Positions 7,384 through 26,397 of a stretch of DNA of 64,000 bases are shown here, piece by piece; position 1 is the stretch's first letter, and each line of letters starts with the position of its first letter. Source of the DNA: an uncultured bacterium (GTDB lineage Bacteria; Edwardsbacteria; AC1; EtOH8); contig CAZPNX010000001.1 in the NCBI GenBank assembly GCA_964588285.1, forward strand, positions 143 through 64,142, read 5' to 3'. The position numbers and the translations under genes were made by a program. Below the pieces are notes generated by a model that was given only the letters and a program-made list of their open reading frames with translations, made no database searches and was not told the origin of the DNA.

Positions 7384-8661
7384 TTGTTGCGAATAATGAT
7401 GCATACCTTCATGTTTCGAGTGGCCGCTGCGCTGCTGTCGCTTGGACTTCTGATAGCCAGCACCAGGTATCTAGGGGCTGATGGCCGTGGTGTCCTGAGT
7501 TTGGCCTTGACCGGTATTGGGATCATTGGTATGCTGAGCGGCTTCATGGGTGGATCCAGCATGGTCTACCTGCTTTCCCAGAGAAAGGACAGAGCACATC
7601 GCCAACGAATCATCGGAATAGCAGCTGTTTGGTCGATAGTTTCCTCGGTTATAGGAACAATATTCATGGGGCTTTTAGGGATCATACCCCAGCCAGTTAT
7701 CGTTCACGTTTTCTTATTGGGAATGCTGGCAAATCTGTTGGCTATTTTTTCCTATGCACTTCTTTCAATCGAAAGGATAACTTATTATAATCGAATCGCT
7801 TTTCTCCAAGTGGCCACTACCTTGGCTATCTTCGGGCTATGGCCAAAGCTGGGGGGGAGGGCAAACGTAGGGCTATATTTGGCTGCATTGTATTGTTCCT
7901 ATCTGATATGTCTGGGAATAGCATCGGCTCTATTGGGCAGAATCAAACAGGCGCCCGAACCGATTGTTGAAAAAAACAGCAGCATAATTGATACAGCCCG
8001 GCAAGTTCTTGGCTATGGGATGATTTCCCAGGCCGGTTTGGTCATACAATTCTTAAATTATCGCCTGAGCTATTTTTTTCTGGACCATTATGCCGGCAGG
8101 GCGGCGGTCGGGATTTATTCAGTAGGGGCGATTTTAGCCGAGTCTCTATGGATGTTTCCCGGAAGCATCGCTCTGGTCCTTTACGCCAGGGTATCCTCGG
8201 TTGGCGAAAGCCGGACAGTTCAGGAAACGACTATCGCTCTGTCCAAATTGAGTTTGGTTGTCACCGCCGCAATGTTGATTGTTTTACTGGCAGTGCCGCC
8301 GGCTTCTTTATCCGCTATATTCGGGAAAGATTTCATCGGCGTGAGCCGGGTAATCTTGTGTTTGTCTCCAGGGATAATGGCCCTCAGTTATGCCATGATC
8401 ATTAACCATTATATGGCGGGTATAGGCCGTTTCAGGGTGAATACCGAGGCTGCGGCCTTGGGTTTGGTATTGACTGTAACCGGCAACGTTCTTTTAGTCC
8501 CCCGGCTAGGGTTGATGGGCGCGGCCCTAGCTGCCAGCATGGCTTATATGGCGGCCGCGGTATATGCAACCAGCTATTTTATAAAACGATCAGGGTTAAA
8601 ATTTGTAGAACTGCTTCCTGGTCGGGACGATTTTTTAAGGTTTAAGTCAATAATTACGTAA
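7384..8661 (+). CDS. Wzx-type oligosaccharide flippase (MOP superfamily polysaccharide biosynthesis protein)
   Basis: About 12 predicted TM helices across 425 aa; positioned between GT genes and asnB. TTG start; alternative ATG at 7396. Confidence 0.75.
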   Translation: MLRIMMHTFMFRVAAALLSLGLLIASTRYLGADGRGVLSLALTGIGIIGMLSGFMGGSSMVYLLSQRKDRAHRQRIIGIAAVWSIVSSVIGTIFMGLLGIIPQPVIVHVFLLGMLANLLAIFSYALLSIERITYYNRIAFLQVATTLAIFGLWPKLGGRANVGLYLAALYCSYLICLGIASALLGRIKQAPEPIVEKNSSIIDTARQVLGYGMISQAGLVIQFLNYRLSYFFLDHYAGRAAVGIYSVGAILAESLWMFPGSIALVLYARVSSVGESRTVQETTIALSKLSLVVTAAMLIVLLAVPPASLSAIFGKDFIGVSRVILCLSPGIMALSYAMIINHYMAGIGRFRVNTEAAALGLVLTVTGNVLLVPRLGLMGAALAASMAYMAAAVYATSYFIKRSGLKFVELLPGRDDFLRFKSIIT

Positions 8662-8668
8662 AAAGCGT

Positions 8669-10648: not shown

Positions 10649-11898
10649 TGGCCGATAAAGGTCGTAAGACCAATATATTATTTGTCTCGGCGCTGGATTT
10701 TAAGGAAAAATCGATTCAGGTTATTCGCAAAACCCCAGAAGCTTTCCGAGATAGCGGCTGGGAAGTGACTTTTATTGTCGCCCGGGACGAATCTAAATCC
10801 GGCGATTACTTCTACGAAAGGGTTTTTAACCCGACTGGGATAAGGGTGGTAAGGATCAATTGGCCGTTATCACGGCTGCAGGATCGGACCCGGGGAAGTG
10901 TCAAAGGGACCATCGTTTCAAAGCTGAGAAGCTATTTGGCCATCATTGGACTGGCGGCCAAGGCCGCCGGAATGCTGTCTATCGAGAGATTCGATGTTGT
11001 TTATGGATATGAAGTCCACGGCTATCTGGCCGTCTGCCTGATGCGTTTGTTAGGAATGGTCCGCGGAGCCAGGGTAGTGGCCCGTTTCCAAGGATTCAAA
11101 CAGAAACAAGGGTTGATGGCCCTGCTTAATTGGGAAATGTTTCTGGCGCTTTTAGTTCCGGCTCATGTTTGCATCATGACCGACGATGGGACCCAGGGAG
11201 ACCGGGTGCTGCGCTATCTGAGATCAGCCAATGCGGCTGGCCTCAGGTTCTGGACCAATGGTGTCGATCCAGTTCCCCCTTTATCAGAGAGTGAGAATAT
11301 TTGTATAAGACAGAAGATGGGATGCCCTAGTAAATGTTTTCTGTTGGTATCCATCAGCCGGTTGGTGCCCTGGAAACGGGTGGACCGGGGCATAAGGATA
11401 GTGGAACGTTTGGTCAAGGAGTACGGCCGAAAGAACATCTTCTATTGCATCGTCGGAGGAGGAATTGAGAGCGGCCGGCTGCAGAACCTGATAGCCGAAC
11501 TGGACCTGACCAGCCATGTCAAACTGGCCGGGCCGCTCGAGCATTCCAAGGCGCTGGATTTACTGAGAGCGGCCGACGCCTTTATCTCGACTTACGACCT
11601 CTCCAACGTCGGCAACCCCCTGCTGGAGGCCATCCGGGCCCACAAGATGATCTTCACCCTGGACAACGGCGATACTGGGAAATGGATAAAGCACGACGAG
11701 AACGGCTTCCTTTATTTACCCAACGATGAGTCGATCCCGGCCATAGCGCGCGACCTGGACCGGCTGATGGGATCCCCGGAACTTGCTATCGCTATAAAAA
11801 AAGGTATACTCAAAACCGAACACCGCCTATGGACCTGGGAACAGAGGATGAAGGCCGAGGTGGATGAAATCGCCGGGCTGGTCCAAGCATGTCGATGA
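10645..11898 (+). CDS. glycosyltransferase (GT-B, group 1-like)
   Basis: ATGA start/stop overlap with asnB. GT4-like C-terminal region 'LLEAIRAHKMIFTL...'. Divergent sequence. Confidence 0.65.
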   Translation: MMADKGRKTNILFVSALDFKEKSIQVIRKTPEAFRDSGWEVTFIVARDESKSGDYFYERVFNPTGIRVVRINWPLSRLQDRTRGSVKGTIVSKLRSYLAIIGLAAKAAGMLSIERFDVVYGYEVHGYLAVCLMRLLGMVRGARVVARFQGFKQKQGLMALLNWEMFLALLVPAHVCIMTDDGTQGDRVLRYLRSANAAGLRFWTNGVDPVPPLSESENICIRQKMGCPSKCFLLVSISRLVPWKRVDRGIRIVERLVKEYGRKNIFYCIVGGGIESGRLQNLIAELDLTSHVKLAGPLEHSKALDLLRAADAFISTYDLSNVGNPLLEAIRAHKMIFTLDNGDTGKWIKHDENGFLYLPNDESIPAIARDLDRLMGSPELAIAIKKGILKTEHRLWTWEQRMKAEVDEIAGLVQACR

Positions 11899-13208
11899 TT
11901 GGTGTCCTGTTGAAGGCTTTTCTGCTGTCCGCATTTATCGGACTTGGCATCAGTTACGGACCGTTCTACCTATCGCATATTGCTCTGGCCGGAGTGCTGG
12001 TTGTTATCCTGGTTCATCTCTATAAGCGGAGAGGTCTTTTACAATTACCCCGTTTGACCACCAACCTGCACCTTTTCCCGGCATTGATGTTAGCTTGGTA
12101 TCTGGTGACCTGTCTGTGGAGCCCCAACCTGACGGTCAGCCTAAAATATCTACTGTATCTGACGTTCGGTGCCTGTATATCGCTGGGGGTGGTTTATTAT
12201 TCCAGGAGCGAACAGCGTCTTCTATGGTTGATCCGGGCATTTCTGATACTTCTGGGGATTGAGATAGTTCTGAGCCTGTTGGAAGCTTTTACTCCTTTTC
12301 GGTATCCTATCTCGCCCCAATCTACGTTGGCGGCTTATTTCGGACGGGAGATGCTGTTGGAGCCTTGGACTATGGCAAAAAAAACGCTGGAGGTGGTGAC
12401 CAGCTATCCCACCGGTTTTCGTTGGAATCCAAACAATCTGGCTACGGTCCTGAACCTTTTCCTCCCATTCATTCTGATGCAGCGTCAGCGGGGGGTGAAA
12501 GCAGCCGGGGCCGGTTCGATTCTGTTGATCATAGTCATGACCAGCTCCAGAATAAATCTGGCTGTCTGCATATTAATCATTGCCCTTTACCTGATTTTCT
12601 TTTCTACCCACCGTGGTCTTTATACCGTTATGCTGTTGCTGGTTGTAACCACCTGGCTTTTGGCCATGCCTCTATTAAATGATAATTATGAGGGTCGGAT
12701 GCCACAATCCCTGAACGAGGTTCTGCACACCTGGGATGCAGTGAAGCGTTTTTTCTCGGAGGAAAGGTTCGTTGGAGACTCAGTCACTCTAAGAAGAAAT
12801 TACCTTAAAAACGGTCTGGAGGCCATTGCCGGTTCCGGCGGCTGGGGGGTGGGGGCAGGATGCGCTGGCGAGGAGCTATATCAATCCGGCGCAATAGCCC
12901 CGGGTGCGGAAAGGGCCAGCCTGCACAATTACTGGCTGGAGATGGCAGTCGATGCCGGTCTTCTCTTCGCTTTTCTTTTCTGGATGTGGTATGCTACTAT
13001 CGTTATTTGGTTGTTACGACTGTATGGTCGAAGCCTCAAGTCTACAATCAGATATCTGGCTTCGACGTCTGGCTTGGCTTTAATCGGAATGGTTCCGGCC
13101 GCGACCGGCACCAGCAGCGTTGTTTATGAGCCAGTCCTGTGGTTGATGTACGGCATCGGCATAGCCACCATCAATCTTGGCTATGCGGACAATCTAAAAG
13201 CCGGTTGA
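11889..13208 (+). CDS. Wzy-like O-antigen polymerase / O-antigen ligase family membrane protein
   Basis: At least 10 TM helices with a large loop late in the protein carrying 'HNYWLEMAVDAGLLFAFLF' (Wzy_C-like motif). Confidence 0.65.
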   Translation: MSMIGVLLKAFLLSAFIGLGISYGPFYLSHIALAGVLVVILVHLYKRRGLLQLPRLTTNLHLFPALMLAWYLVTCLWSPNLTVSLKYLLYLTFGACISLGVVYYSRSEQRLLWLIRAFLILLGIEIVLSLLEAFTPFRYPISPQSTLAAYFGREMLLEPWTMAKKTLEVVTSYPTGFRWNPNNLATVLNLFLPFILMQRQRGVKAAGAGSILLIIVMTSSRINLAVCILIIALYLIFFSTHRGLYTVMLLLVVTTWLLAMPLLNDNYEGRMPQSLNEVLHTWDAVKRFFSEERFVGDSVTLRRNYLKNGLEAIAGSGGWGVGAGCAGEELYQSGAIAPGAERASLHNYWLEMAVDAGLLFAFLFWMWYATIVIWLLRLYGRSLKSTIRYLASTSGLALIGMVPAATGTSSVVYEPVLWLMYGIGIATINLGYADNLKAG

Positions 13209-13209
13209 G

Positions 13210-14286
13210 GTGATGAAGATAATGATGCTGGCTCCGGCCAGCTCGATTCACACTAGGAGGATTGCATCTTCGCTGGCGGACAGAGGATGCCTTGTGGAGG
13301 TAGCCACCTATCATCCCGGTTTGATCCCTGGAGTCAGGATCCACGTATTGCCCAGGATCCCGATGTTTAGAAAAATCGGATATCTTTCGGCGATCCCTGC
13401 AATTAAGATCCTGATTAGGCTTATGAATCCTGACATTCTTCATGCCCATTACCTTTCGAGTTACGGAGCGGCAGCCTGGATCTGCGGTTTTCATCCCTTG
13501 GTAGTATCCGCCTGGGGCACCGACATCTTTGTTTTCCCTCATCATAGCCTGATAAATCGGTGGCTGATACGGCGGATTACGGATTCAGCCGATGCTATTT
13601 TGTCCACCAGCCGTTTCATGGCCTCCGAAGTTAAACGATACACCGCCAAGCAGGTGATGGTGACTCCATTTGGGGTGGACACCTCGCTGTTCCGGCCCAT
13701 GCCGATGATTAGAAGAAAAGGCCAAGAGGAAACTATCGGCTCGGTCAAGGCGCTGGAACGGCAATATGGCATGGATGTGGTCATAAAGTCATTCGCCGGA
13801 GTTGTTGCTGATAAAAAAAAGAAACCGCTGAAGCTGGAGATTGTGGGCTCGGGACAACAGGAGGGTGAACTTAAGAGATTGGCCATCCATTTAGGAATAG
13901 CTAGCAAGGTCAATTTTGCCGGTTTTATAGAGCATTCGAAACTTCCAGAAATATTCAACAGTTTTTCGGTGGCCGCCTATGGGTCGATATGTCCGGAATC
14001 ATTCGGGGTTTCCCTCTTGGAAGCCCAAGCTTGCGGGGTGCCGGTGGTGGCCAGCGATATCGGCGGTTTTCGCGAGGTGGTGCGTCATGGTTTTACTGGC
14101 CTTCTGGTACCTGCGGGCAATCATCAGGCTATGGCCGAAGCCATTGGGGAATTACTTGATGATCATGAGAAAAGAAAACGTTTCTCTCGTGCCGCCAGAG
14201 AATTCGTCGCAGCCGAGTATTTCTGGGAGAAAACAATCGACTGTTTTATGGCACAATACTACAGGCTAATCTCTACTGACAAATGA
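13210..14286 (+). CDS. glycosyltransferase family 4
   Basis: 'ESFGVSLLEAQACGVPVVASDIGGFREVV' is the GT4 consensus. Confidence 0.8.
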   Translation: MMKIMMLAPASSIHTRRIASSLADRGCLVEVATYHPGLIPGVRIHVLPRIPMFRKIGYLSAIPAIKILIRLMNPDILHAHYLSSYGAAAWICGFHPLVVSAWGTDIFVFPHHSLINRWLIRRITDSADAILSTSRFMASEVKRYTAKQVMVTPFGVDTSLFRPMPMIRRKGQEETIGSVKALERQYGMDVVIKSFAGVVADKKKKPLKLEIVGSGQQEGELKRLAIHLGIASKVNFAGFIEHSKLPEIFNSFSVAAYGSICPESFGVSLLEAQACGVPVVASDIGGFREVVRHGFTGLLVPAGNHQAMAEAIGELLDDHEKRKRFSRAAREFVAAEYFWEKTIDCFMAQYYRLISTDK

Positions 14287-15512
14287 GGCGGACTGCCAGA
14301 CAGACTACAGATACAGGGTTCGATTTCCTGATCGACAATTTACTGCGGGCCTCATTGGTAGGTTTTGTCGGCTCAATGCCGGTTTCCATAGCCTTTTGCC
14401 AAATTTCTTTAGGGGTTGCCTGGCTGTCATGGCTCGCTATTTGTTGGCGGAAAAAGCGGTGGCTTGGCTACGCCACCGGGCTCGAAATTGCAGTGGGCCT
14501 TTTCCTTGCTGCCTGTGTCCTATCTACGATTTTATCCGCCCAGCCTTTGGACAGCCTAATTGGTCTAAAGAAATTTTACCTGGCCTCGTCCCTTTTCCTA
14601 GTAGCCTATGCCTGCCATTCACCTGAAGATGGCAGAAAATTAATAACAGTCTTTCTTTTCTTTTCATCTCTTACAGCAGGCTATGGTCTGCTGATGTACC
14701 TTGCCGGAATGCAGGGAAGGGTGACCGGCATTCAAACCATGGCCCTGACGGCCGGCGGCATATTTATGATGGCCGCCTTGTTGTCACTAGTTTTTGCTAT
14801 CCAGGGAAGAATATTAACGCGCTGGCTATCGGTGCCCATTTCAATTATATTGTTAGCGGCATTATTATTAAGCCAAAGCGCCGGTTCGTTGGTATCACTT
14901 ATTATAGGGTCGATTAGCGTGCTTATTTTATCTCGTCGTTGGAAGATATTGGCGGCGACAGCAATAGCCGCTACCGTTATAACGGTTTTCTTTTTCAAAC
15001 TACCATCAGGGACTGGGTCGACAGTGGCGATCCAGAAGTCCAACACTTGGGAACTGCGGAAAACCATCTGGAACGTGGGATGGAAGGTTTTTAAGGAAAA
15101 ACCAGTGACTGGCCATGGGCTGATAGACCTGGGGGAAGCCTACCACCGAAACCGGGAGCGTTGGGACTTGGAAAGAGACCCATGGAACACCTGGAATTAC
15201 GGACACCTGCACAATATTTTTCTCCAGATTGCCGCCAACACCGGGGTGATTGGATTAGCGGCTTTTATTTTTCTGCTTTATTCGGTGCTGTCATTATCAT
15301 TGGGATTGATAAAATGCGTGAAACAAGACATAAAGGCTCTGGGTTTGGCTCTATCCGGTGTTATTATTGGGTTTATAGTCAATGGTTTGGCCGAATGGAA
15401 CTTTGGAGACTCCGAAGTAGTGACTGTCTTCTGGTTTGCCGTGGGGCTTTCGGTCCTGTTGAAGAAATCAATAAAATGGAATCCGATTGTTTCAGATAAT
15501 GCCGGCTATTAA
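14283..15512 (+). CDS. O-antigen ligase (Wzy_C) family membrane protein; WaaL/PglL-like
   Basis: Multi-TM protein with 'NYGHLHNIFLQIAANTGVIGLAAFIFLL', the Wzy_C/O-antigen-ligase hallmark (conserved His in the periplasmic loop). Confidence 0.7.
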   Translation: MRRTARQTTDTGFDFLIDNLLRASLVGFVGSMPVSIAFCQISLGVAWLSWLAICWRKKRWLGYATGLEIAVGLFLAACVLSTILSAQPLDSLIGLKKFYLASSLFLVAYACHSPEDGRKLITVFLFFSSLTAGYGLLMYLAGMQGRVTGIQTMALTAGGIFMMAALLSLVFAIQGRILTRWLSVPISIILLAALLLSQSAGSLVSLIIGSISVLILSRRWKILAATAIAATVITVFFFKLPSGTGSTVAIQKSNTWELRKTIWNVGWKVFKEKPVTGHGLIDLGEAYHRNRERWDLERDPWNTWNYGHLHNIFLQIAANTGVIGLAAFIFLLYSVLSLSLGLIKCVKQDIKALGLALSGVIIGFIVNGLAEWNFGDSEVVTVFWFAVGLSVLLKKSIKWNPIVSDNAGY

Positions 15513-16764
15513 ATTGAAACTACTATTTTTAACCCACTACTTTCCACCCGAGGTGGGCGCCCCTCAATCGCGCATTGATGAGATAGCGAAGGTACTAGCA
15601 AAGCGGGGCCATAAGGTATCGGTGCTGACCAATTTCCCCCATTATCCCGATGGTGTCATCAAAACGCCTTATCAAAGGGCTGTACTGCTTAAAGAGTCCA
15701 GGGGCGAGGTGGATGTAATCCGTTCCTATGTCTGGGCCAGACCCAATAAGGGTTTCGCCAGCAGAATGGCCAATCATCTTTCTTTCTGCATTACCTCGTT
15801 GGTAGCGGCATCCAAACTGCCGCCGTGCGATGTGGTGGTGACGGAATCGCCGCCCCTGTTCCTGGGATTCAGCGGTTGGATAATTTCCCGGATGCTGGGC
15901 GCCTCCCATATTTTCAATGTGGCCGACGTCTGGCCACAATCGGCAGTGGAAATGGGTGCCCTAACCAACCGAACAGCCGTTACGATGGCAGAATGGTTGG
16001 AACGTTTCATCTACGACCATAGCCATCTGATAACGGTGGTCACTGAGGGCATCAGAAAAGACCTGTTGGCCCGCGGGCTGGCGACAGAGAAGGTAGCCAC
16101 CCTGACCAATGGGGTGGACCTGGATTTTTTCCAGTCTCAGGGAAAGGGTTTGTCTGTTAAAAATGAACTAAATCTATCCGGCAAGTTCATAGCATTATAC
16201 GCCGGCACTCATGGGATGGCCCAGGGCTTGCATGTGGTGCTTAGAGCCGCAGGAATATTGGCAAACGAACCGAATATTGTTTTTGTGATGGCGGGCGACG
16301 GTGCCGAAAAAGCGGGGCTGGTGGAAACTGCCCAAAAAATGAACCTAAAAAATGTGAGATTTCTGAATACTTGGCCAAAATCACGCATGCCCGAGTTGCT
16401 CGAGGCCGCCGATGTCTGTCTGGTGACTCTGAGGAAACTGCCGGTTTTTCGACGGGCACTTCCGTCCAAGATGTACGAGGCTATGGCCATGGCCAGGCCT
16501 CTGGTTGTTTCCGCCGAGGGCATGGCCGCCGAATTGGTGGACTCAACCAACTGCGGAATGGCCATCCCTCCGGAAAATCCGGAAAAGCTTGCAGAAGCGG
16601 TTAAAGACCTGTTTCGGAATCCCTCTAAAAGAGCCAAAATGGGGCTTCGGGGAAGGAATTTGGTGGAGAGGGAATACTCACGTGAAAAGATTGCCGGGAA
16701 ATGGGAGCGCCTGCTGGCGGAAACGGCTGAGAGAATAGATTTGCAATCGTTGTATGGACAATGA
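15487..16764 (+). CDS. glycosyltransferase family 4 (WcaI-like)
   Basis: 'LKLLFLTHYFPPEVGAPQSRIDEIAKVLAKRGHKVSVLT' N-terminus and C-terminal GT4 region 'VSAEGMAAELVDS'. Confidence 0.8.
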   Translation: MFQIMPAIKLKLLFLTHYFPPEVGAPQSRIDEIAKVLAKRGHKVSVLTNFPHYPDGVIKTPYQRAVLLKESRGEVDVIRSYVWARPNKGFASRMANHLSFCITSLVAASKLPPCDVVVTESPPLFLGFSGWIISRMLGASHIFNVADVWPQSAVEMGALTNRTAVTMAEWLERFIYDHSHLITVVTEGIRKDLLARGLATEKVATLTNGVDLDFFQSQGKGLSVKNELNLSGKFIALYAGTHGMAQGLHVVLRAAGILANEPNIVFVMAGDGAEKAGLVETAQKMNLKNVRFLNTWPKSRMPELLEAADVCLVTLRKLPVFRRALPSKMYEAMAMARPLVVSAEGMAAELVDSTNCGMAIPPENPEKLAEAVKDLFRNPSKRAKMGLRGRNLVEREYSREKIAGKWERLLAETAERIDLQSLYGQ

Positions 16765-17315
16765 AAAGAGTATTTGATATAATTATTTGTTTTACATTGC
16801 TGCCGCTTCTTTTGCCTCTGATGCTGGCGGCTGGTTTGGCGGTGGTCATCGATTCCGGGCCTCCGGCGCTCTTTTTACAGGAAAGGGTGGGCCGCGGCGG
16901 AAAAATTTTTCGCATTTACAAGTTTCGCACCATGATTCGGGACGCCGAATCCAAGGGGCCTTTACTGGCGGAACGGGGAGATCCCCGGGTGACCAAGGTG
17001 GGAAGGTTTCTGAGACGCTGGAGTTTGGACGAGCTGCCCCAGTTATTTAATGTTATCAAGGGGGAAATGAGCCTGGTGGGGCCGCGGCCGGAGCTGCCGC
17101 CGCTGGTGGACGTCTATACTCCCTGGCAGCGACAAGTGCTTTCGGTGCTGCCGGGCGTCACCGGGTTTTCCCAGGTTCACGGCCGCGATGATCTTTCCAT
17201 GGACACCAAGCTACGTCTGGATGTTTACTATATAAAACACCGCAGCCTGGCGATGGACCTCTGGATCATCTGGCGTACCGCCTTCGAGCTTGTTTCCGGA
17301 CGGGGGGCTTTCTGA
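16761..17315 (+). CDS. small monotopic phosphoglycosyl transferase, PglC/WecP-like (bacterial sugar transferase)
   Basis: 184 aa with a single N-terminal re-entrant helix, then 'RVGRGGKIFRIYKFRTM...DELPQLFNVIKGEMSLVGPRPE'. This is the second initiating transferase in the cluster. Confidence 0.85.
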   Translation: MKRVFDIIICFTLLPLLLPLMLAAGLAVVIDSGPPALFLQERVGRGGKIFRIYKFRTMIRDAESKGPLLAERGDPRVTKVGRFLRRWSLDELPQLFNVIKGEMSLVGPRPELPPLVDVYTPWQRQVLSVLPGVTGFSQVHGRDDLSMDTKLRLDVYYIKHRSLAMDLWIIWRTAFELVSGRGAF

Positions 17316-17318
17316 CAT

Positions 17319-18011
17319 ATGGGAGAGGCCGAGAGGATTGCCGAACGCTATCAACGCCGCAAGATCTTGCCGGCCGGTCGTTATTCCATGTTCGATCCCG
17401 GCAACCTTTTCATCATCCACCAACGCGAGAGGCTTCTACTGCGGTTGCTCCGAAAACATGGTCTGGCAAACCTGGCCGGGGCCACCCTTCTGGAGGTTGG
17501 CTGCGGCGACGGTTGGTGGTTAAGAAGGTTTGTGGAATACGGGTTCAGGCCGGAGAACCTAAGGGGCATAGAGCTTTTGCCGGAGAGGGTGGAGCGGGCC
17601 ATGTTTTTAAGCCCCAACATCAGGATAGAGTCGGGCGATGCCTCTTGCCTGGCTCTTCCGGATGGTTCATTTGATATAATTTTCCAGAGCACCGTCTTCA
17701 GTTCGATGCTCGATACGGCTATGCGGCGGGAGACGGCCAAGGAGATGCTTCGAGTCCTTCGGCCGGGCGGGATGATCATCTGGTACGATCTTCGGGTGAA
17801 CAATCCAAGCAACCCCGACGTTAAGGGACTGGGCCGCCGGGAGATTGAATCTCTTTTTCCGGGTTGCTGCTACTGCTTCCATCGAACTACTTTGGCTCCG
17901 CCTTTGGCGAGAACCCTGGCTCCGGTAAGCTGGTCGCTCTGCCATCTGCTTTCGCGGCTGCCCCTACTTCTTACCCATTATCTGGCGTTCATATCCAAAC
18001 CCGCTTTCTAA
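17319..18011 (+). CDS. class I SAM-dependent methyltransferase
   Basis: 'LLEVGCGDGWW' (motif I) ... 'LRPGGMIIWYDL' (motif III/post-II). Confidence 0.75.
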   Translation: MGEAERIAERYQRRKILPAGRYSMFDPGNLFIIHQRERLLLRLLRKHGLANLAGATLLEVGCGDGWWLRRFVEYGFRPENLRGIELLPERVERAMFLSPNIRIESGDASCLALPDGSFDIIFQSTVFSSMLDTAMRRETAKEMLRVLRPGGMIIWYDLRVNNPSNPDVKGLGRREIESLFPGCCYCFHRTTLAPPLARTLAPVSWSLCHLLSRLPLLLTHYLAFISKPAF

Positions 18012-18014
18012 GCG

Positions 18015-19892
18015 ATGGAGAGATTCGAAAAAAGGCGCTGGTTTCTTTTTCTGGCAGATATCCTGCTGGTGAATTTGGCTCTGTGGCTGGCATTCGCTTT
18101 GCGATTCGAATGGGCCATCCCCGAGGTCTATCGGCCTTACTACTGGCAGATAGCGGTTTTCGTCACCCTTCTCAGGATAACGCTACTGGCGTTGCTAGGG
18201 CTTTATCGCGGTGTCTGGCGATACATCGGAATCAGCGACCTGATGGCCATCCTCAAGGCGGTCAGCCTGGGAACGGTGATGATGGCGGCTTCCGCTTTCC
18301 TGGCCAGGCGTTTGGATTACGCCTCCTGGGGATTGCCGCTGGAATGGCTGGAGGGCTATCCCCTGAGCGTGATGGTGGCCGAGTGGCTGGGAGCCATCAT
18401 CCTGATCGGTGGCCTGCGTCTGGGTCTGAGGCTACTGCAGCGGCACCGGGTGATTACCCGATACCGCCACCTGGAAAGGAAGCGGGTTTTGATCATCGGA
18501 GCAGGCGATGCCGGCGAAATGGTGGCCAGGCAGCTGCTGGCCCATCCCGAGTTCGGCTATCAGCCGGTTGGCTTTATCGACGACGATCCCCGCAAGCAAA
18601 ATAGGCGCATACACGGCCTGCCCATTATAGCCGGACGCGACCAGATATTCCAGGTGGTACTGGAACGCCGAGTGGAGGAGATCATTATCGCCATCCCCTC
18701 GGCCCCAGGCTCAGTTGTCCGGGAACTGGTGGAGCAGTGTCGTCGGGCCAAGCTCAAATTCAAGATCGTGCCCGGCATCAAGGACATCATCGAGGGGGAG
18801 GTCAGCCTCAGCCAGATCCGGGAGGTGGAGCTTGAGGATCTGTTGGGGCGCCAGCCGGTCAGCCTCAATATGGATGAGATCTCGGGTTATCTGACCGGAA
18901 AAAGAGTGCTGGTGAGCGGGGCCGGCGGCTCCATCGGAGCTGAGCTCTGTCGTCAGATAGCCGGTTTAGGACCGGAACGGTTGGTGATGTTGGGCAAGGG
19001 CGAGAACAGCCTCTACGAGATCGAGTATGAACTTACCCATCGCTTTAAGGGGCTTCCCCTGATAGCGGCGGTGGGGGATGTGGGCGACCGGGCGCGGATG
19101 GAACAAATCTTTGGAGAGTACCGGCCCCAAGTGGTATTTCATGCGGCCGCCCACAAGCATGTTCCCTTGATGGAAGCCAATCCCGGCGAGGCTGTTAAAA
19201 ACAACGTTTTCGGCACCAAAACGCTAGCCGAGGCCTCTATTGCGGCTGGTGTGGAACGCTTCGTATTCATCTCTACAGACAAGGCGGTCAATCCCACCAG
19301 CATTATGGGGGCCACCAAGCGGCTGGCCGAGGATGTGCTTTCCGCTTTGGAGGCTAAAGGCCGAACCAAGTTCATCACCGTCCGCTTCGGCAATGTGCTG
19401 GGCAGCCGCGGCAGCGTGGTGCCTCTCTTCAAGCGGCAGATCGCGGCCGGGGGGCCGGTCACCGTCACCCACCCGGAAGTGGAGCGCTATTTCATGACCA
19501 TCCCCGAGGCGGTGCAGCTGGTGATCCAAGCTGGGGCTATGGGCCGGGGCGGCGAGATCTTCGTCTTGGACATGGGCAAACCCGTCAAGATAGTGGATCT
19601 GGCCCGAGACCTGATAATCCTTTCCGGCTTGGAGCCGGAAACCGACATTTCCATCGAGTTCACCGGACTGCGGCCGGGAGAGAAACTCTATGAGGAATTG
19701 ATGACGGCCGAGGAGGGGGTAAACGCCACCAGACATTCCCAGATTTTCGTGGCCCGGGCCAGACGTTTCCAGCCGGGCCAACTCGACAAGATCCTGAAAC
19801 GTCTGGAGAATGCCTCACGTAGAGGACACCACAGACAGATCGTAAGCGCCCTGAAAAGCTGTCTTCCCAGCTATCGGCCGAGCGAAAAATGA
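18015..19892 (+). CDS. membrane-anchored UDP-N-acetylglucosamine 4,6-dehydratase (PglF/WbpM/CapD family)
   Basis: Four N-terminal TM helices, then two Rossmann domains: 'VLIIGAGDAGEMV' and 'VLVSGAGGSIGAELCRQI'; 'FISTDKAVNPTSIMGATKRLAE' catalytic region. Confidence 0.9.
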   Translation: MERFEKRRWFLFLADILLVNLALWLAFALRFEWAIPEVYRPYYWQIAVFVTLLRITLLALLGLYRGVWRYIGISDLMAILKAVSLGTVMMAASAFLARRLDYASWGLPLEWLEGYPLSVMVAEWLGAIILIGGLRLGLRLLQRHRVITRYRHLERKRVLIIGAGDAGEMVARQLLAHPEFGYQPVGFIDDDPRKQNRRIHGLPIIAGRDQIFQVVLERRVEEIIIAIPSAPGSVVRELVEQCRRAKLKFKIVPGIKDIIEGEVSLSQIREVELEDLLGRQPVSLNMDEISGYLTGKRVLVSGAGGSIGAELCRQIAGLGPERLVMLGKGENSLYEIEYELTHRFKGLPLIAAVGDVGDRARMEQIFGEYRPQVVFHAAAHKHVPLMEANPGEAVKNNVFGTKTLAEASIAAGVERFVFISTDKAVNPTSIMGATKRLAEDVLSALEAKGRTKFITVRFGNVLGSRGSVVPLFKRQIAAGGPVTVTHPEVERYFMTIPEAVQLVIQAGAMGRGGEIFVLDMGKPVKIVDLARDLIILSGLEPETDISIEFTGLRPGEKLYEELMTAEEGVNATRHSQIFVARARRFQPGQLDKILKRLENASRRGHHRQIVSALKSCLPSYRPSEK

Positions 19893-21085
19893 GCGACCGA
19901 GACGATTTTCTCCAAACAAGACGGCCTCTCAGACAAGAGATGCTGGCCTTTTCGCCTCCCGATATCAGCCAGGCCGAGATAGACGAAGTAGTAGATACCC
20001 TTCGCTCCGGATGGCTGACTACCGGGCCAAAAACCCAGAGGTTCGAGCGGGAATTCGCCGAATATGTAGGCGCCCGTTCCTGCCTGGGTCTGGGATCGGC
20101 CACGGCTGGGCTTTTTTTGGGTCTGAAAGCTTTGGGGGTTGGCTCGGGCGACGAGGTAATCACCACTCCCTACACCTTTGCCGCCACGGTCAATGTCATT
20201 CTTCACGTCGGGGCCAAGCCGGTGTTGGCCGACGTCAAGGAGCACGATTTCAACATCGACCCGGAGATGGTGGAGCGGGCGGTTACCTCGAGGACCAAGG
20301 CCCTCATCCCGGTTCATTTTGCCGGCCATCCCTGCGATATGGACGCCTTGGGAGAGATTGCGAAAAAAAACGGCTTGGTTGTTATCGAGGATGCTGCCCA
20401 TGCCGTCGGCGCCGAATACAAGGGCAAAAGGATCGGCTCCATAAGCCGGCTGACGGTCTTCAGTTTGCATGCCGTCAAGAACGTGACCACCGGCGAGGGG
20501 GGCATGGCGGCCTCGAACGATGACCAGCTTCTGCAGCGCCTGCGGGTTCTTTGCCTGCACGGCATGGACAAGGATGCCTGGTGCCGCTTCGCCCCGGGCG
20601 GAAAATGGAAGTACGACATCGTAGAGGCGGGCTACAAGTGCAACCTGATGGACATTCAATCGGCCATCGGCCTCCACCAGCTTAAGCGGGCCGAGAGCAT
20701 GCTGGCTCGGCGGCGGGAGATAGTTGCTCTTTATCGAAAACGTTTGGAGGGAGTGGAATATCTGAGGCTGCCGCCGGATGCCACAAACGGACGTCATGCC
20801 TGGCACCTGTTTCCGGTCATCATCGACTTCGACAAGCTAAGGTTAGATCGCGACGGCTTTATCGAACAGCTGGCGGCCAGGAAAATAACCGCCAACGTCC
20901 ATTATCAGCCGGTTCACCTATTCAGCTATTACCGAAGCCTGGGCTTTGCTCCCGGTGATTTTCCGGTAGCCGAGCGTCTGGCGCAAAACGAGGTCACCTT
21001 GCCGCTGTATACCCGGATGACCGATGAGGATGTTGAGGATGTGGCTGTTGCGGTCTGCGAGATCATCAAAGAGCATAGTAAATAA
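19889..21085 (+). CDS. DegT/DnrJ/EryC1/StrS-family PLP-dependent sugar aminotransferase (PglE/WbpE-like)
   Basis: 'DEVVDTLRSGWLTTGPKTQRFEREFAEYVGA', 'VIEDAAHAVGAEYKGKRIGS', and Lys in 'FSLHAVKNVT'. Confidence 0.9.
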   Translation: MSDRDDFLQTRRPLRQEMLAFSPPDISQAEIDEVVDTLRSGWLTTGPKTQRFEREFAEYVGARSCLGLGSATAGLFLGLKALGVGSGDEVITTPYTFAATVNVILHVGAKPVLADVKEHDFNIDPEMVERAVTSRTKALIPVHFAGHPCDMDALGEIAKKNGLVVIEDAAHAVGAEYKGKRIGSISRLTVFSLHAVKNVTTGEGGMAASNDDQLLQRLRVLCLHGMDKDAWCRFAPGGKWKYDIVEAGYKCNLMDIQSAIGLHQLKRAESMLARRREIVALYRKRLEGVEYLRLPPDATNGRHAWHLFPVIIDFDKLRLDRDGFIEQLAARKITANVHYQPVHLFSYYRSLGFAPGDFPVAERLAQNEVTLPLYTRMTDEDVEDVAVAVCEIIKEHSK

Positions 21086-21100
21086 ATAAAAGGATCAAAA

Positions 21101-21676
21101 ATGTCCGACTACTTCGTCCATCAGAGCGCCTTTGTCGACGAGCCGGTGGAGATAGGCGCCGGCACCAAGATCTGGCATTTCTGCCACGTCTCCAAGGGTG
21201 CCAAAATCGGAAAAGCATGTTCGTTGGGCCAGAACGTCTATGTGGGCAGCCGGGTGGTCATTGGTAACAACTGCAAGATTCAAAATAATGTCTCGGTTTA
21301 CGACCTGGTGACTTTGGAGGACGATGTTTTCTGCGGGCCATCCATGGTGTTCACCAACGACATGAACCCACGGGCGGCATTTCCCAAAGGGGGAAAGTGG
21401 ATACCGACTTTGGTCAAAAAGGGCGCCAGCTTGGGAGCCAATTGCACCATCGTCTGCGGCATCACCATCGGCAGCCATGCCTTTGTGGCCGCCGGCTCCT
21501 TGGTGCGCAAGGACGTGCCGGACTACGCGGTGGTGGCCGGGGTCCCTTCGAGAATAATAGGCTGGATGTGCCAGTGCGGGGGAAGGCTCAATTTCGAAAA
21601 GTCCGACCAGGAGGCCTGCGCACTTTGTCAGAGGAAATATCATAAGAGCGGAGATAAGGTCTCCATTGTTGATTGA
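21101..21676 (+). CDS. left-handed beta-helix (hexapeptide) sugar N-acetyltransferase, PglD/WbpD-like, with C-terminal Cys4 tail
   Basis: Tandem hexapeptide repeats ('IGAGTKIWHFCHVSKGAKIGKACSLGQNVYVGSRVVIGNNCKI'); C-terminal 'CQCGG...CALCQ'. Confidence 0.8.
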   Translation: MSDYFVHQSAFVDEPVEIGAGTKIWHFCHVSKGAKIGKACSLGQNVYVGSRVVIGNNCKIQNNVSVYDLVTLEDDVFCGPSMVFTNDMNPRAAFPKGGKWIPTLVKKGASLGANCTIVCGITIGSHAFVAAGSLVRKDVPDYAVVAGVPSRIIGWMCQCGGRLNFEKSDQEACALCQRKYHKSGDKVSIVD

Positions 21677-21732: not shown

Positions 21733-22803
21733 ATGTCCTTTGCCGAATTGGATGAAACCCGACGTCTGGAATGGGACCGTTCCGACATGGGAAGCCTGCT
21801 GGCGCAGTTCTCCCACCAGTGCCGACAGGCGATGGAGATAGGCTCTAATTTTCGCGCGGGGATGGCATCCGGCAAACCCCGCTGTGCCCTAGTCTGCGGC
21901 ATGGGCGGGTCGGCCATCGCTGGGGATGTGGCTGCGTCCTGGGCCGAAAGAACATTGGCCGGCCCCCTTTTGGTCCATCGCAACTACGACCTGCCGCACT
22001 GGGCTGGCCCCGAAGATCTGGTGGTAACCAGCAGCTATTCGGGAGACACCGAGGAAACGCTATCCTCCTATGCCAGAGCACGCCAGGTCGGAGCCGAAAT
22101 ATTGGCCATCACCACCGGCGGAGAGCTGGCGAGGAGGTGTGCGGCTGACGGCGTTCCCTTGATAAAAATACCGGGCGGCATGCCGCCGCGCTGCGCCTTC
22201 GGTTTTTCTTTTTTTACCCTGATCCATGCTTTGGCTGATCGCCATGTTATTGAAATCGGCCAAAACCAGTTATCCGAAGCAATAGAGACGTTGGAGCGGC
22301 TATCACAGGAATGCCATTGGTCGACAGCCGAGCATACCAACCAGGCAAAACAGATCGCCCGGCATCTGGAGAAATCCTTGCCGGTGATCTATGCCTCAGC
22401 CGATCTTTTGGGACCGGCGGCCAGGCGCTGGGCCAACCAGATTAATGAAAATGCCAAGCAGCCGTCGTATGCCGCATTTTTCCCGGAGCTTTGCCATAAT
22501 GAGATAGTGGGATGGGATCTTGGCGAGGGACCGGCCAAGGGGATGTCGGTGGTGATGCTGGGAGATCCCGACGATCATAGACGCAACGTTATCAGGTCCC
22601 AAGCGGTGGCCGAGCTGGTGGGAGACGCGGCCCGGGCGGTATTAAGGCTTGAGGGCAAGGGACAAGGGCTGCTGGCCCGGATGCTATACCTGATACATCT
22701 GGGGGACTGGGTGAGCTATTATCTGGCTTGGTTGAACCGAGTAGACCCCACCCCCATTGGGCCGATCGTAAAACTGAAGAACATCCTCAAGGAAGCGAAA
22801 TGA
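21733..22803 (+). CDS. bifunctional phosphoglucose/phosphomannose isomerase family protein (SIS domain)
   Basis: SIS motif 'ALVCGMGGSAIAGDVAASW'; ~350 aa is the typical size for the PGI/PMI family. Confidence 0.7.
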   Translation: MSFAELDETRRLEWDRSDMGSLLAQFSHQCRQAMEIGSNFRAGMASGKPRCALVCGMGGSAIAGDVAASWAERTLAGPLLVHRNYDLPHWAGPEDLVVTSSYSGDTEETLSSYARARQVGAEILAITTGGELARRCAADGVPLIKIPGGMPPRCAFGFSFFTLIHALADRHVIEIGQNQLSEAIETLERLSQECHWSTAEHTNQAKQIARHLEKSLPVIYASADLLGPAARRWANQINENAKQPSYAAFFPELCHNEIVGWDLGEGPAKGMSVVMLGDPDDHRRNVIRSQAVAELVGDAARAVLRLEGKGQGLLARMLYLIHLGDWVSYYLAWLNRVDPTPIGPIVKLKNILKEAK

Positions 22804-23893: not shown

Positions 23894-25039
23894 ATGATTG
23901 AAAAAAGGCTTCTGACCTCGGAGTCGGTGACCGAGGGCCACCCCGACAAGATGTGCGACCAGATATCCGACGCCATCTTGGACGCCATCCTGGACAACGA
24001 CCCCAACGGCCGGGTGGCCTGCGAGACCCTGGTGACCACCGGGCTGGTGATGGTGGCCGGCGAGATCTCCACCTCGGCCTACATCGACATCCCGGGCCTG
24101 GTGCGGGAAACGGTCAAGGAGATCGGCTACACCGACGCCAAGAGCGGGCTGGACTACGAGACCTGCGGCGTCATTACCGCCATCCAGGAGCAGTCGTCGG
24201 ACATCGCCCTGGGGGTGAACACCGGCGGAGCCGGGGACCAGGGGATGATGTTCGGCTTCGCCTGCAACGAGACCCCGGAGCTGATGCCCATGCCCATCAT
24301 GATGGCCCACAAGCTCTGCCGCCGGCTGACCGAGGTGCGCAAGTCCGGGACCATGGACTACCTGCGCCCCGACGGCAAGTCCCAGGTGACGGTGGAGTAC
24401 GACAACGGGAAGCCCAAGAGGATCGACACCATCATCATCTCCGCCCAGCACCATCCCGACGTCCCCGAGGCCAGGGTGAAGAAGGACGTTGTAAAGCACG
24501 TCATCGCCCGGGTGGTCGACAAAAAGCTGATGGACGACAAGACCAAGATCCTGGTCAATCCCACCGGTCGCTTCGTCATCGGCGGGCCCCAGGGCGACTC
24601 AGGCCTGACCGGCCGCAAGATCATCGTCGACACCTATGGCGGGCTGGGGCGGCACGGCGGCGGCTGCTTCTCGGGCAAGGATCCCACCAAGGTCGACCGA
24701 TCGGCCGCCTACGCCGCCCGCTATATAGCCAAGAACGTGGTGGCTGCCGGACTGGCGGAGCGCTGCGAAATCCAGCTGGCCTATGCCATCGGCGTGGCCG
24801 ATCCGGTGTCCATCGCCGTCGATACCTTCGGCACCGGCCGGGCCGACGAGGCCAGGCTGTGCAAGGCCATCCGCCAGCACTTCGACCTGACGCCGCACGG
24901 GATAATTGACATGCTTAAATTGAAACGGCCCATCTACCGGCGGACCGCTGCTTACGGGCACTTTGGGCGTGAGGAGGAGGGCTTCACCTGGGAGAAGACC
25001 GACGTGGCCGCCAAGCTGAAAGCGGCGTTAAAGAAGTAA
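23894..25039 (+). CDS. metK: S-adenosylmethionine synthetase
   Basis: '[18 protein letters not shown]', '[12 protein letters not shown]', '[28 protein letters not shown]' are canonical MetK motifs. Confidence 0.95.
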
Positions 25040-25140
25040 CGAAAATTCACCACAAAGACACCAAGGCACTAATCCGGATAAATTTCGTATCTTTGCGCCT
25101 TGGTGGTTAACCCCGGTTCCAACCGGATTAGGAGATTTGA
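25040..25140 (+). ncRNA. candidate structured 5' leader of ahcY (pseudoknot-like; possible SAH-responsive element)
   Basis: Two interleaved perfect 9-bp helices: 25059-25067 with 25097-25105, and 25069-25077 with 25123-25131. The second overlaps the SD 'AGGAG' (25130-25134) of ahcY. Confidence 0.35.

Positions 25141-26397
<1,257 letters not shown>

Follow-up and report, generated by a model that had tools for sequence, protein, structure and literature searches.

A putative 4-amino-4,6-dideoxy-HexNAc initiating module adjoining a WlbB/WbpD-type acetyltransferase gene in an uncultured Edwardsbacteria-like bacterium

Closest described pathways and the locus

AATGal (FucNAc4N) is the initiating sugar in pathways that include Spr1654 and an SmPGT in S. 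pneumoniae teichoic acid, WcfR/WcfS in B. fragilis PSA and WbgX/Y/Z in S. sonnei and Plesiomonas. These pathways combine a PglF-like 4,6-dehydratase, a DegT C4 aminotransferase and a small monotopic phosphoglycosyl transferase (PGT), and need no acetyltransferase. The UDP-diNAcBac pathways of C. jejuni (PglF-PglE-PglD-PglC) and B. subtilis (EpsC-EpsN-EpsM-EpsL) follow the same overall scheme from dehydratase through aminotransferase to small PGT, and their acetyltransferases belong to the PglD class (PMC10653937). A further reference system is provided by WlbB of Bordetella petrii and WbpD of P. aeruginosa and P. gingivalis, the UDP-GlcNAc3NA 3-N-acetyltransferase of the Wbp/Wlb pathway.

We analyzed a 64,000-nucleotide stretch of DNA (termed here the window) from the MAG of an uncultured diderm resembling Candidatus Edwardsbacteria/UBP2. 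A previous sequence-only reading had described a complete bacillosamine set of the PglC-PglF-PglE-PglD type at 16761-21676, and the ORF list and Pfam confirmed five consecutive + strand genes there, with the order and superfamilies proposed (Table 1). The locus has the three enzyme types of the AATGal pathways, its DegT protein is nearest to Spr1654 and it carries an aromatic Phe, not Trp, at the N-acetyl-gating position (PMC5936713). It differs from them in the moderate DegT identity (42%), in a methyltransferase gene inserted into the module and in its host. With the UDP-diNAcBac pathways it shares the general scheme and a PglF-type dehydratase retaining the TDK stretch, but its aminotransferase is not PglE-like, its acetyltransferase lacks the N-terminal UDP-binding domain of PglD and its PGT has neither aromatic box, GLLLP motif nor C-terminal extension. 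The acetyltransferase resembles WlbB/WbpD in its beta-helix-only architecture, whereas the Wbp partner genes are absent from the window and the gene heads a PGI/PMI-nucleotidyltransferase operon in this lineage. Its loop 94-103 differs from that of WlbB, though matching the WOR-3 type, and its Cys-rich C-terminal tail (CxCG...CxxC) is absent from WlbB.

Table 1. Features of the gene run and its flanks (window coordinates).
Feature	Coordinates	Strand	Length and support
Wzy_C-family protein	14283-15512	+	Pfam, NCBIfam
WcaI-like GT4 glycosyltransferase	15487-16764	+	Pfam, NCBIfam
Small monotopic PGT, initiating enzyme of the module	16761-17315	+	184 aa; Bac_transf 2e-65
Class I SAM-dependent methyltransferase	17319-18011	+	230 aa; Methyltransf_25/11 at 1e-14
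Membrane-anchored PglF/WbpM-type UDP-GlcNAc 4,6-dehydratase	18015-19892	+	625 aa; Polysacc_synt_2 9e-121 with CoA_binding_3
DegT-family PLP sugar aminotransferase	19889-21085	+	398 aa; DegT_DnrJ_EryC1 3e-128
WlbB/WbpD-type left-handed beta-helix N-acetyltransferase	21101-21676	+	191 aa; Hexapep 7e-22
Bifunctional phosphoglucose/phosphomannose isomerase (PGI/PMI)	21733-22803	+	NF006426 331 bits, cut-off 295
Sugar-1-phosphate nucleotidylyltransferase, C-terminal beta-helix	22800-23777	+	325 aa from ATG at 22800; NTP_transferase 3e-36

Enzymes encoded in the run

The Pfam E-values of the five genes exclude chance assignment. The start of the PGT gene overlaps the GT4 gene by 4 nt, and the Wzy_C and GT4 genes directly upstream are translationally linked to it. 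Gaps of 3 nt separate the PGT from the methyltransferase and the methyltransferase from the dehydratase gene, the dehydratase and DegT genes overlap by 4 nt, and the acetyltransferase gene is preceded by a 15-nt and followed by a 56-nt gap. The identical five-gene order was found on related MAG contigs (L007, L008/L002 and L079), and a Wzy_C gene also lies ahead of the small PGT in L003, L009, L014, L076 and L159.

The dehydratase matched PglF (5bju) with 310 bits and 48% identity over the soluble domain, including an identical 'ISTDKAV' stretch, as compared to 137 bits for PseB (2gn4) and 133 bits for CapE. It fell below the cut-offs of the PseB (TIGR03589, 191 against 408) and LegB (30 against 475) models, so that PglF is by far the better fit. 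It had been called membrane-anchored, which holds because four hydrophobic segments occupy its N-terminus.

When the DegT protein was ranked against solved structures, Spr1654 (310 bits), ArnB (284-300) and perosamine synthase (228) came first, and PseC of H. pylori (201), Pcryo_0638 (190), WbpE (163) and PglE (137) ranked lower. The HAVKN lysine motif is kept, and Phe97 aligns with Trp89 of ArnB and Tyr84 of Spr1654, so that a 2-acetamido sugar could be accommodated (PMC5936713). The enzyme is probably a UDP-4-keto-6-deoxy-HexNAc C4 aminotransferase. Spr1654, whose activity was inferred and not assayed on its own substrate, and ArnB both yield axial C4 amines on UDP-sugars (PMC5936713); judged by these closest characterised enzymes, the product would have the axial galacto form (FucNAc4N, i.e. 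AATGal), the equatorial bacillosamine form being also possible. It is to be noted that Pcryo_0638 and PglE share 27% identity and yet catalyze the same reaction (PMC8040287), so that similarity among DegT enzymes is a poor guide to the product, which weakens the reading that we prefer below.

The PGT was compared to PglC and WbaP and matched C. concisus PglC (137 bits, 42% identity) and the catalytic domain of WbaP (135 bits) equally well. Its assignment to the small monotopic class is correct, since its one hydrophobic helix, at the N-terminus, falls on the re-entrant helix in the PglC alignment. The fingerprint of diNAcBac PGTs consists of an 'aromatic box' of five residues and a GLLLP motif (PMC10186338). 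Read against it in the PglC alignment, the window PGT keeps one of the five residues, with L115, Y119, M147 and L151 at the positions of Y118, Y122, W150 and F154 and no equivalent of F197; GPLLA replaces GLLLP and the C-terminus is about 14 residues short.

The acetyltransferase matched WlbB (3mqg) with 228 bits and 62.5% identity over 160 residues. It retains an Asn at the position of the catalytic Asn84 of WlbB. Pfam detected no PglD_N domain in it, PglD was not among its best 60 PDB matches and the NeuD/PglB/VioB model scored it at 82.8 bits, below the cut-off of 160.8; membership of the PglD/NeuD class was therefore rejected.

The description as a complete bacillosamine set could consequently be retained for the dehydratase, one of the four enzymes, and not for the aminotransferase, the acetyltransferase or the PGT. 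The acetyltransferase clusters with another pathway, and the aminotransferase does not. The first two chemical steps, 4,6-dehydration and C4 amination, and loading by the PGT are supported.

Gene context and the role of the acetyltransferase

The genes at 16761-21085 may constitute the end of a variable cluster for a surface glycan (O-antigen, EPS or glycoprotein-glycan) spanning about 9-21085, namely the part that provides the initiating sugar. The PglF-type dehydratase would convert UDP-GlcNAc to UDP-2-acetamido-2,6-dideoxy-4-hexulose, DegT would transaminate C4 to give UDP-2-acetamido-4-amino-2,4,6-trideoxyhexose and the small PGT would move the sugar-1-phosphate onto undecaprenyl phosphate, starting a repeat unit that the products of the upstream GT4 and Wzy_C genes would extend and then polymerise or ligate. 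The methyltransferase would be an optional decorating enzyme. The acetyltransferase would be a WlbB/WbpD orthologue, a 3-N-acetyltransferase of UDP-2-acetamido-3-amino-2,3-dideoxy-hexose or hexuronate, heading an acetyltransferase-PGI/PMI-nucleotidyltransferase-MetK-AhcY backbone and placed beside the aminotransferase only because the variable island would end there. We give an even chance to this reading, in which the three genes and the methyltransferase make and load a 4-amino-4,6-dideoxy-HexNAc and the WbpD-like gene is merely a neighbor. It is possible, though we find it doubtful, that the WlbB-type enzyme has instead been recruited for the C4 amine produced by DegT. The chemistry first proposed would then be achieved with non-orthologous parts, the PGT loading UDP-2,4-diacetamido-2,4,6-trideoxyhexose (diNAcBac or its galacto epimer) onto undecaprenyl phosphate.

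Recruitment for C4 acetylation is favored by gene proximity: 10 of the roughly 15 lineage loci (the window, L007, L008, L079, L080, L003, L009, L012, L014 and L076) have the acetyltransferase gene directly behind DegT on the same strand, after a gap of 11-15 nt. Nevertheless, across relatives it is fixed ahead of the PGI/PMI-nucleotidyltransferase-MetK-AhcY backbone with or without the dehydratase and aminotransferase, and travels with this downstream block. It directly precedes PGI/PMI in L005, L068 and L075, all devoid of DegT; in L005 and L068 it comes after a large PGT, and in L075 after a PGT, PglF, a short SDR and a 286-nt AT-rich gap in which no DegT remnant was found. In L003, L005, L075 and L076 the gene overlaps at its stop with the start of PGI, a coupling to PGI and not to DegT. 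The PGT-PglF-DegT trio has stayed together in at least 12 loci from two phyla. On the L159 contig of MAG UBA5202 the order is GNAT-Wzy_C-PGT-PglF-DegT-Epimerase_2 with no beta-helix acetyltransferase, which lies on a separate contig (L068) adjoining PGI; since this genome holds both, action in trans is conceivable, contrary to our preferred reading. A GNAT acetyltransferase inside the cluster of several module-bearing relatives could serve instead. In the Dehalococcoidia locus L160, the DegT-PGT-PglF trio (DegT 54% identical) has no acetyltransferase of its own, and a beta-helix acetyltransferase lies between a 2-epimerase and WbpE-like and GFO_IDH_MocA genes.

The Edwardsbacteria acetyltransferases form one clade regardless of gene context, unsplit by the presence of DegT, which argues against recruitment for C4 acetylation. 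The nearest outgroups (L077, L162 and L078) show WbpB-acetyltransferase-WbpE or acetyltransferase-WbpE-WbpA order, and the substrate-side loop has hardly changed between the window enzyme and L077. The core is 73% identical to that of a WOR-3 homologue sandwiched in a GFO_IDH_MocA-acetyltransferase-DegT trio (WbpB-like and WbpE-like), with a near-identical 84-105 loop, and close homologues (64-73% identity) are neighbors of genes for GFO_IDH_MocA (WbpB-like), DegT (WbpE-like) and UDP-sugar dehydrogenase (WbpA-like) proteins. However, no WbpA-, WbpB- or WbpE-type gene or second aminotransferase was detected in the 64 kb window or in the ~10 kb around the acetyltransferase in lineage loci, and with the WOR-3 WbpB as query no Edwardsbacteria-labelled protein was among the best 120 matches; both results favor C4 acetylation and count against the preferred reading, for which the 3-amino substrate has to be presumed in this lineage. 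WlbB reportedly makes very few contacts with the sugar, so that promiscuity of the window enzyme is conceivable, again in disfavor of the preferred reading, and beta-helix enzymes of the no-base class, such as AntD, are able to act on C4 amines. On the other side, the missing diNAcBac fingerprint of the PGT speaks against C4 acetylation, and we found no characterised diNAcBac pathway with a WlbB-type enzyme in the literature.

Other readings of the module and its accessory genes

It appears improbable that the PGT takes 4-keto UDP-KdgNAc or another non-aminated sugar, with amination or other tailoring following once the sugar is lipid-linked, or affecting another residue, as for WreU/WreQ of Rhizobium etli. 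In favor of it, there are large SmPGT clusters specific for UDP-KdgNAc, with modification after transfer (PMC11626204), the equal matches to PglC and WbaP leave room for such a specificity and the orthologous PGT and PglF of L075 are paired with a short SDR and no DegT. Conservation of the PGT-PglF-DegT unit, on the other hand, accords with a soluble pathway that supplies the PGT with a UDP-sugar, and no report of DegT enzymes acting on lipid-linked sugars was found in the literature. Scarcely any credence can be given to a role in the first steps of pseudaminic or legionaminic (nonulosonic) acid synthesis: DegT reached 394 bits on the PseC equivalog TIGR03588, near the cut-off of 423.5, and some automated homologue names read PseC, but H. 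pylori PseC itself ranked low, the dehydratase is neither PseB nor LegB, no PseG/PseH/PseI/NeuB-type family was seen when the window's large ORFs were scanned with Pfam and the module contains a dedicated small PGT.

The methyltransferase reached no NCBIfam cut-off, and its PDB matches were weak (phosphoethanolamine N-methyltransferase 36 bits, CalS10 26 bits). Its gene is an optional part of the module, being found in the window and in L007, L008 and L079; L003/L004 carry a truncated copy, and L009, L012, L014, L076 and L159 have none. Downstream, the conserved backbone has PGI/PMI as its first clearly housekeeping gene and also includes the nucleotidylyltransferase, whose homologues in L002 and L003 are likewise 325 aa long.

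The five-gene run and its glycan cluster

The sequence-only reading had placed five genes between positions 16761 and 21676, and ORF listing combined with Pfam searches confirmed all of them on the plus strand. In order, they carry Bac_transf, class I SAM methyltransferase, Polysacc_synt_2 with CoA_binding_3, DegT_DnrJ_EryC1 and Hexapep domains (E-values from 1e-14 to 1e-128 across the five ORFs), corresponding to a small phosphoglycosyl transferase (PGT), a methyltransferase, a dehydratase, an aminotransferase and an acetyltransferase. The genes are tightly packed: the first and fourth junctions are overlaps of 4 nt and the two between them gaps of 3 nt, the acetyltransferase gene being preceded by a 15-nt gap and trailed by one of 56 nt. 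A promoter and terminator scan detected nothing beyond shuffled expectation that would separate the genes, and an 11/12 sigma-70-like match across the PGT start (16755-16783) is probably due to chance. The run is part of a single plus-strand series from position 9 to 23777, extending from glycan genes through a nucleotidylyltransferase.

Features of the glycan cluster and of the genes downstream
Feature	Coordinates	Strand	Remarks
B12-binding radical-SAM enzyme	9-1283	+	heads the cluster; followed by GT2, then GT4
Large polytopic-type PGT	3376-4794	+	followed by Wzz-like protein
GT4 with methyltransferase domain fused at C-terminus	5532-7373	+	after Wzz-like protein; followed by protein without Pfam match
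AsnB-type glutamine amidotransferase	8669-10648	+	followed by GT4
First Wzy_C protein	11889-13208	+	followed by GT4
Second Wzy_C protein	14283-15512	+	followed by WcaI-like GT4, directly before the five-gene run
Small PGT	16761-17315	+	five-gene run
Methyltransferase	17319-18011	+	five-gene run
Dehydratase	18015-19892	+	five-gene run
DegT aminotransferase	19889-21085	+	five-gene run
Acetyltransferase	21101-21676	+	five-gene run
Cys-rich tail of acetyltransferase	21569-21640	+	residues ~157-180, CxCG...CxxC
Bifunctional PGI/PMI, then sugar-1-phosphate nucleotidylyltransferase	to 23777	+	after the five-gene run
MetK and AhcY	23894-26397		followed by LptF/LptG
SprA-like protein	29159-34780		1873 aa
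Type IV pilus block: PilB-like ATPases and following genes	35408-43442		three tandem T2SSE/MshEN ATPases (564, 574, 590 aa), then PilT-like ATPase and PilC-like platform protein
PilS-TM/PAS/sigma-54 activator fusion	43688-45904
Protein with pilin-like N-methylation motif	47361-48359
Two adjacent GT9 heptosyltransferases	57253-59236

The GC content drops to 0.48-0.51 at 4-16 kb (4800-16760), as compared to about 0.6 on the flanks. In the window, the large PGT and the acetyltransferase lie roughly 16 kb apart, with glycosyltransferase, Wzy and module genes of lower GC content in between, whereas these two genes adjoin each other in two related loci (L005 and L068; loci from other genomes are designated by L-numbers). 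The interval between the two conserved genes therefore looks like an insertion site for variable glycans, and we flag it as a fixed integration site running from the conserved large PGT to the WbpD-like acetyltransferase gene. The radical-SAM, GT2 and large PGT genes heading the cluster are also kept together in L005. Two Wzy_C-family proteins are encoded within the one cluster; polymerase, O-antigen ligase and O-oligosaccharyltransferase functions were not separable for either of them (top NCBIfam score 45 bits, cut-off 188), and, with pilus genes being near, one of the two may have a PglL/TfpO-like role. WbpS-type members of the AsnB-type amidotransferase family amidate uronic acids (PMC7468200). 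The presence of such an amidotransferase together with a WbpD-like gene hints at a uronamide sugar, although no uronic-acid genes were seen.

Dehydratase, aminotransferase and small phosphoglycosyl transferase

The dehydratase was described from the sequence as membrane-anchored and of PglF/WbpM type, and both properties were upheld. Among solved structures it matches C. jejuni PglF best (5bju; 310 bits, 48% of residues identical across the soluble domain, ISTDKAV stretch unchanged), as against 137 bits for PseB, 133 for CapE and 140 for an FnlA-type enzyme, and four hydrophobic segments at the N-terminus form a membrane domain. The possibility that PseB or LegB might fit better had been raised at the same time; the equivalog models for PseB, FnlA and LegB all scored far under their cut-offs (TIGR03589 for PseB, 191 against 408; TIGR04180 for LegB, 30 against 475), and PglF is by far the better match. 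A diNAcBac pathway calls for a membrane-anchored UDP-GlcNAc 4,6-dehydratase of the PglF/WbpM type (Polysacc_synt_2), and the window encodes one; we infer from its similarity to PglF that the enzyme would retain the configuration at C5.

The aminotransferase displays the DegT fold and the catalytic lysine. Among solved structures it scored highest with Spr1654 (310 bits, 42% identity) and four entries of ArnB (284-300 bits, 38% identity), followed by perosamine synthase (228), QdtB (204), PseC (201), Pcryo_0638 (190), WbpE (163), WecE (158), DesI (157) and PglE (137). Spr1654 is a pneumococcal enzyme assigned to the conversion of UDP-4-keto-6-deoxy-GlcNAc to UDP-AATGal, and the 2-acetamido group is shut out by Trp89 of ArnB, a position occupied by Tyr84 in Spr1654 and Phe84 in PseC (PMC5936713). 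The window enzyme carries Phe97 at this position, so a HexNAc-derived substrate fits, which counts against an ArnB role. An Ara4N function was rejected on this ground and because a PglF-type gene overlaps the aminotransferase gene and ArnA, ArnC and ArnT genes are missing. Judging from the configurations of their sugars, Spr1654 and ArnB would both yield an axial C4 amine, and we therefore lean weakly towards a galacto product, FucNAc4N. The equatorial (gluco) C4 amine of diNAcBac pathways is formed by PglE/EpsN orthologues or other Bac-forming enzymes, and PglE and Pcryo_0638 score lower here than Spr1654 and ArnB. It is to be noted that C4 stereochemistry is unreadable from such comparisons, since Pcryo_0638 and PglE catalyze the same reaction at only 27% identity (PMC8040287).

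The small PGT had been called PglC-like. It is indeed a monotopic small PGT, whose one hydrophobic helix, at the N-terminus, corresponds in the alignment to PglC's re-entrant helix, but it lacks the published sequence signature of diNAcBac specificity. Its scores express no preference between C. concisus PglC (137 bits) and the WbaP catalytic domain (135 bits). According to Anderson et al. 2023 (PMC10186338), PGTs acting on diNAcBac share an aromatic box (Tyr118/Tyr122/Trp150/Phe154/Phe197), a GLLLP loop and some 14-19 additional residues at the C-terminus, whereas in PGTs not acting on diNAcBac the motifs are degenerate and the chain is shorter by about 14 residues. Aligned by HMMER to C. concisus PglC without gaps, the window enzyme has L115, Y119, M147 and L151 at the positions of Y118, Y122, W150 and F154, and it stops 14 residues earlier, leaving no equivalent of F197. 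The loop reads GPLLA instead of GLLLP, and the motifs read from this alignment are consequently not those of a diNAcBac PGT. For the adjacent methyltransferase, no family model reached its cut-off and all PDB matches remained at or below 36 bits.

The acetyltransferase and its context in relatives

The last gene of the run was read from the sequence as a PglD-like N-acetyltransferase, an assignment that our searches contradict. Its beta-helix starts around residue 5 and no PglD_N domain was found with Pfam, while the score on the NeuD/PglB/VioB model TIGR03570 was 82.8 bits (cut-off 160.8), with only the beta-helix part aligned (profile 89-165). The best solved relative is the UDP-GlcNAc3NA 3-N-acetyltransferase WlbB (3mqg; 228 bits, 62.5% identity), followed by FdtD and the 3-amino-sugar acetyltransferases of H. 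pullorum; PglD does not figure among the 60 best PDB matches and PerB scored 28 bits. PglD, PerB, VioB and Pcryo_0637 are grouped together as Class I, bilobal enzymes that have a catalytic histidine (PMC9271549, PMC8040287). Unlike these enzymes, in which an N-terminal alpha/beta UDP-binding domain precedes the beta-helix, the window acetyltransferase has no N-terminal domain, and on sequence it falls outside the PglD/NeuD Class I. It has the architecture of WlbB and WbpD: a beta-helix only, about 190 aa, close similarity to WlbB, and a conserved Asn. This residue, N86, aligns with chain residue N86 of WlbB, which we take to be the 'Asn84' that positions the sugar amine.

In an alignment and neighbor-joining tree, every Edwardsbacteria acetyltransferase falls into one clade without any split by gene context. 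The nearest outgroup is a WOR-3 enzyme (L077; 73% identity over the core) whose gene lies between a GFO_IDH_MocA gene and a 365-aa DegT gene, an arrangement also found in L162. Next come WlbB and a Bacteroidota enzyme (L078) flanked by WbpE-like and WbpA-like genes. Behind the conserved FTN, the loop sequence is FTNDMNPRAAFPKGGKWIPTLV for the window enzyme and FTNDMNPRAGFPKGGVWIPTLV for its L077 counterpart, a comparison that gives no hint of the substrate having changed. The C-terminal Cys-rich tail, which may be a zinc ribbon, is common to WOR-3, Bacteroidota and Dehalococcoidia homologues and is lacking in WlbB.

To compare gene order, loci were gathered through homologues of the acetyltransferase, of PGI/PMI and of the nucleotidyltransferase, and neighbours were typed by blastp and tblastn. 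The related contigs come from Candidatus Edwardsbacteria/UBP2 MAGs. A metagenome scan seeded with the nucleotidyltransferase contributed just four further loci of the lineage (L079, L080, L084 and, at a greater distance, L081/82), so that co-occurrence counts are small. The block PGI/PMI-nucleotidyltransferase-MetK-AhcY-(LptFG)-SprA is constant in the lineage and the region upstream of PGI varies. The order PGT-(methyltransferase)-PglF-DegT-acetyltransferase precedes PGI in the window, L007, L008 (=L002), L079, L003/4, L009, L012, L014, L076 (=L084) and probably L080. In L005/6 and L068, the acetyltransferase stands between the large PGT and PGI, and in L075 a short SDR-PGT-PglF series is separated by a 286-nt AT-rich gap from the acetyltransferase, with no DegT gene or remnant; no DegT or PglF remnants were found in loci carrying the acetyltransferase only. 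L010 retains the module with an acetyltransferase gene that has lost residues ~88-115 and is frameshifted (8955-9426), and a remnant of 29 residues is all that is left in L011 (9814-9900); these disruptions could be real decay, with a pseudogene in L010, or MAG assembly errors. In L003, L005, L075 and L076, the end of the acetyltransferase gene and the start of PGI overlap, and the DegT-to-acetyltransferase junction is always a short gap.

The most telling case for an acetyltransferase separate from the module is MAG UBA5202, in which it adjoins PGI on DHVS01000031 (L068), and a GNAT-Wzy_C-PGT-PglF-DegT-Epimerase_2 cluster without any beta-helix acetyltransferase lies on DHVS01000016 (L159). 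In a Dehalococcoidia locus (L160), a DegT (54% identical)-PGT-PglF trio adjoins a 2-epimerase gene and then a beta-helix acetyltransferase with partners of its own, a WbpE-like DegT and a GFO_IDH_MocA gene. By synteny, the acetyltransferase gene adjoining the module in the window belongs to the conserved backbone.

In every relative, the SAM-cycle genes MetK and AhcY come immediately behind the glycan and sugar-nucleotide genes; their position beside a cluster with two methyltransferase domains may be a coincidence.

Pathway reading and alternatives

The run had been presented as a complete bacillosamine module. This was overstated: the acetyltransferase is of another class and by synteny of another operon, and the PGT lacks the diNAcBac fingerprint. 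Domain families alone do not justify a bacillosamine-cluster label for such a gene run. On the simplest account, a variable glycan island would terminate in a three-gene initiating module, and the conserved backbone would begin with the acetyltransferase gene, an orthologue of WbpD/WlbB with partner genes elsewhere. In L159, and in L160 next to the separately partnered acetyltransferase, the dehydratase, C4 aminotransferase and small PGT make up a unit with no beta-helix acetyltransferase of its own, as in a FucNAc4N (AATGal) module. In such a module the aminotransferase would deliver an axial C4 amine, for which its nearest solved relatives, Spr1654 and ArnB, give indirect support, and the PGT may prefer UDP-FucNAc4N. 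The finding is modest: the run is real and ordinary, probably a further member of the known 4-amino-4,6-dideoxy-HexNAc initiating modules, found in an uncultured phylum and adjoined by a WbpD-like gene. It predicts that the reducing-end sugar of the variable surface glycan of Edwardsbacteria/UBP2 is a 4-amino-4,6-dideoxy-HexNAc, possibly one with a free amine, which would make it zwitterionic.

The main weakness of this explanation is that no WbpB/WbpE pair was found in the lineage, in the loci and the best 120 matches searched. With queries from L077 and L078, tblastn detected no WbpB, WbpE or WbpA in the 64-kb window and ~10-kb flanks of 16 lineage loci, the only matches being to the module's own DegT (30-35% identity). 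A search seeded with WOR-3 WbpB returned no Edwardsbacteria-labelled WbpB among its best 120 matches, only more trios of WOR-3 type. Outside the lineage, acetyltransferases of 64-73% identity do have WbpB- and WbpE-type neighbours. In P. gingivalis, WbpA, B, D and E are dispersed in the genome and make the T9SS cargo-linking sugar (PMC7468200), a precedent for partner genes located elsewhere. With a SprA-like gene 7.5 kb from the acetyltransferase, the analogy is an attractive lead.

Because no such pair was found, we retain as a minority possibility that the base-less beta-helix acetyltransferase of WlbB/WbpD type was co-opted in Candidatus Edwardsbacteria, replacing PglD non-orthologously and acetylating the C4 amine of UDP-4-amino-4,6-dideoxy-HexNAc. 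The product would then be a 2,4-diacetamido-trideoxyhexose made by a hybrid route not yet described, with regiospecificity shifted from C3 to C4 and the sugar-side loop almost unchanged. The characterised diNAcBac pathways checked use PglD-class enzymes (PMC10653937), and C4 acetylation in the clusters of L003, L076 and L159 could be performed by a GNAT acetyltransferase, in place of which the window has a methyltransferase. This GNAT gene (Acetyltransf_1) lies just upstream of Wzy_C-PGT-PglF-DegT (L003 1817-2410, L076 1573-2199, L159 1727-2308). If true, co-option would be a small but real case of regiochemical re-use of a WlbB-type enzyme. A Pse/Leg pathway was rejected from the PDB ranking, from PseB, LegB, PseC and LegC models below cut-off (for the aminotransferase, TIGR03588 for PseC gave 394 against 423.5, and LegC 229 against 420), and from the lack of synthase genes, no nonulosonate synthase family being present in Pfam scans of the window's large ORFs.

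Further downstream, the SprA-like protein has a weak SprA_N match (47 bits), is encoded beside LptF/LptG in all relatives and is presumably this candidate phylum's divergent version of the T9SS translocon. Taken together, the GT9 pair and LptF/LptG point to a diderm that has an LPS core, and the glycan cluster could thus specify an O-antigen.
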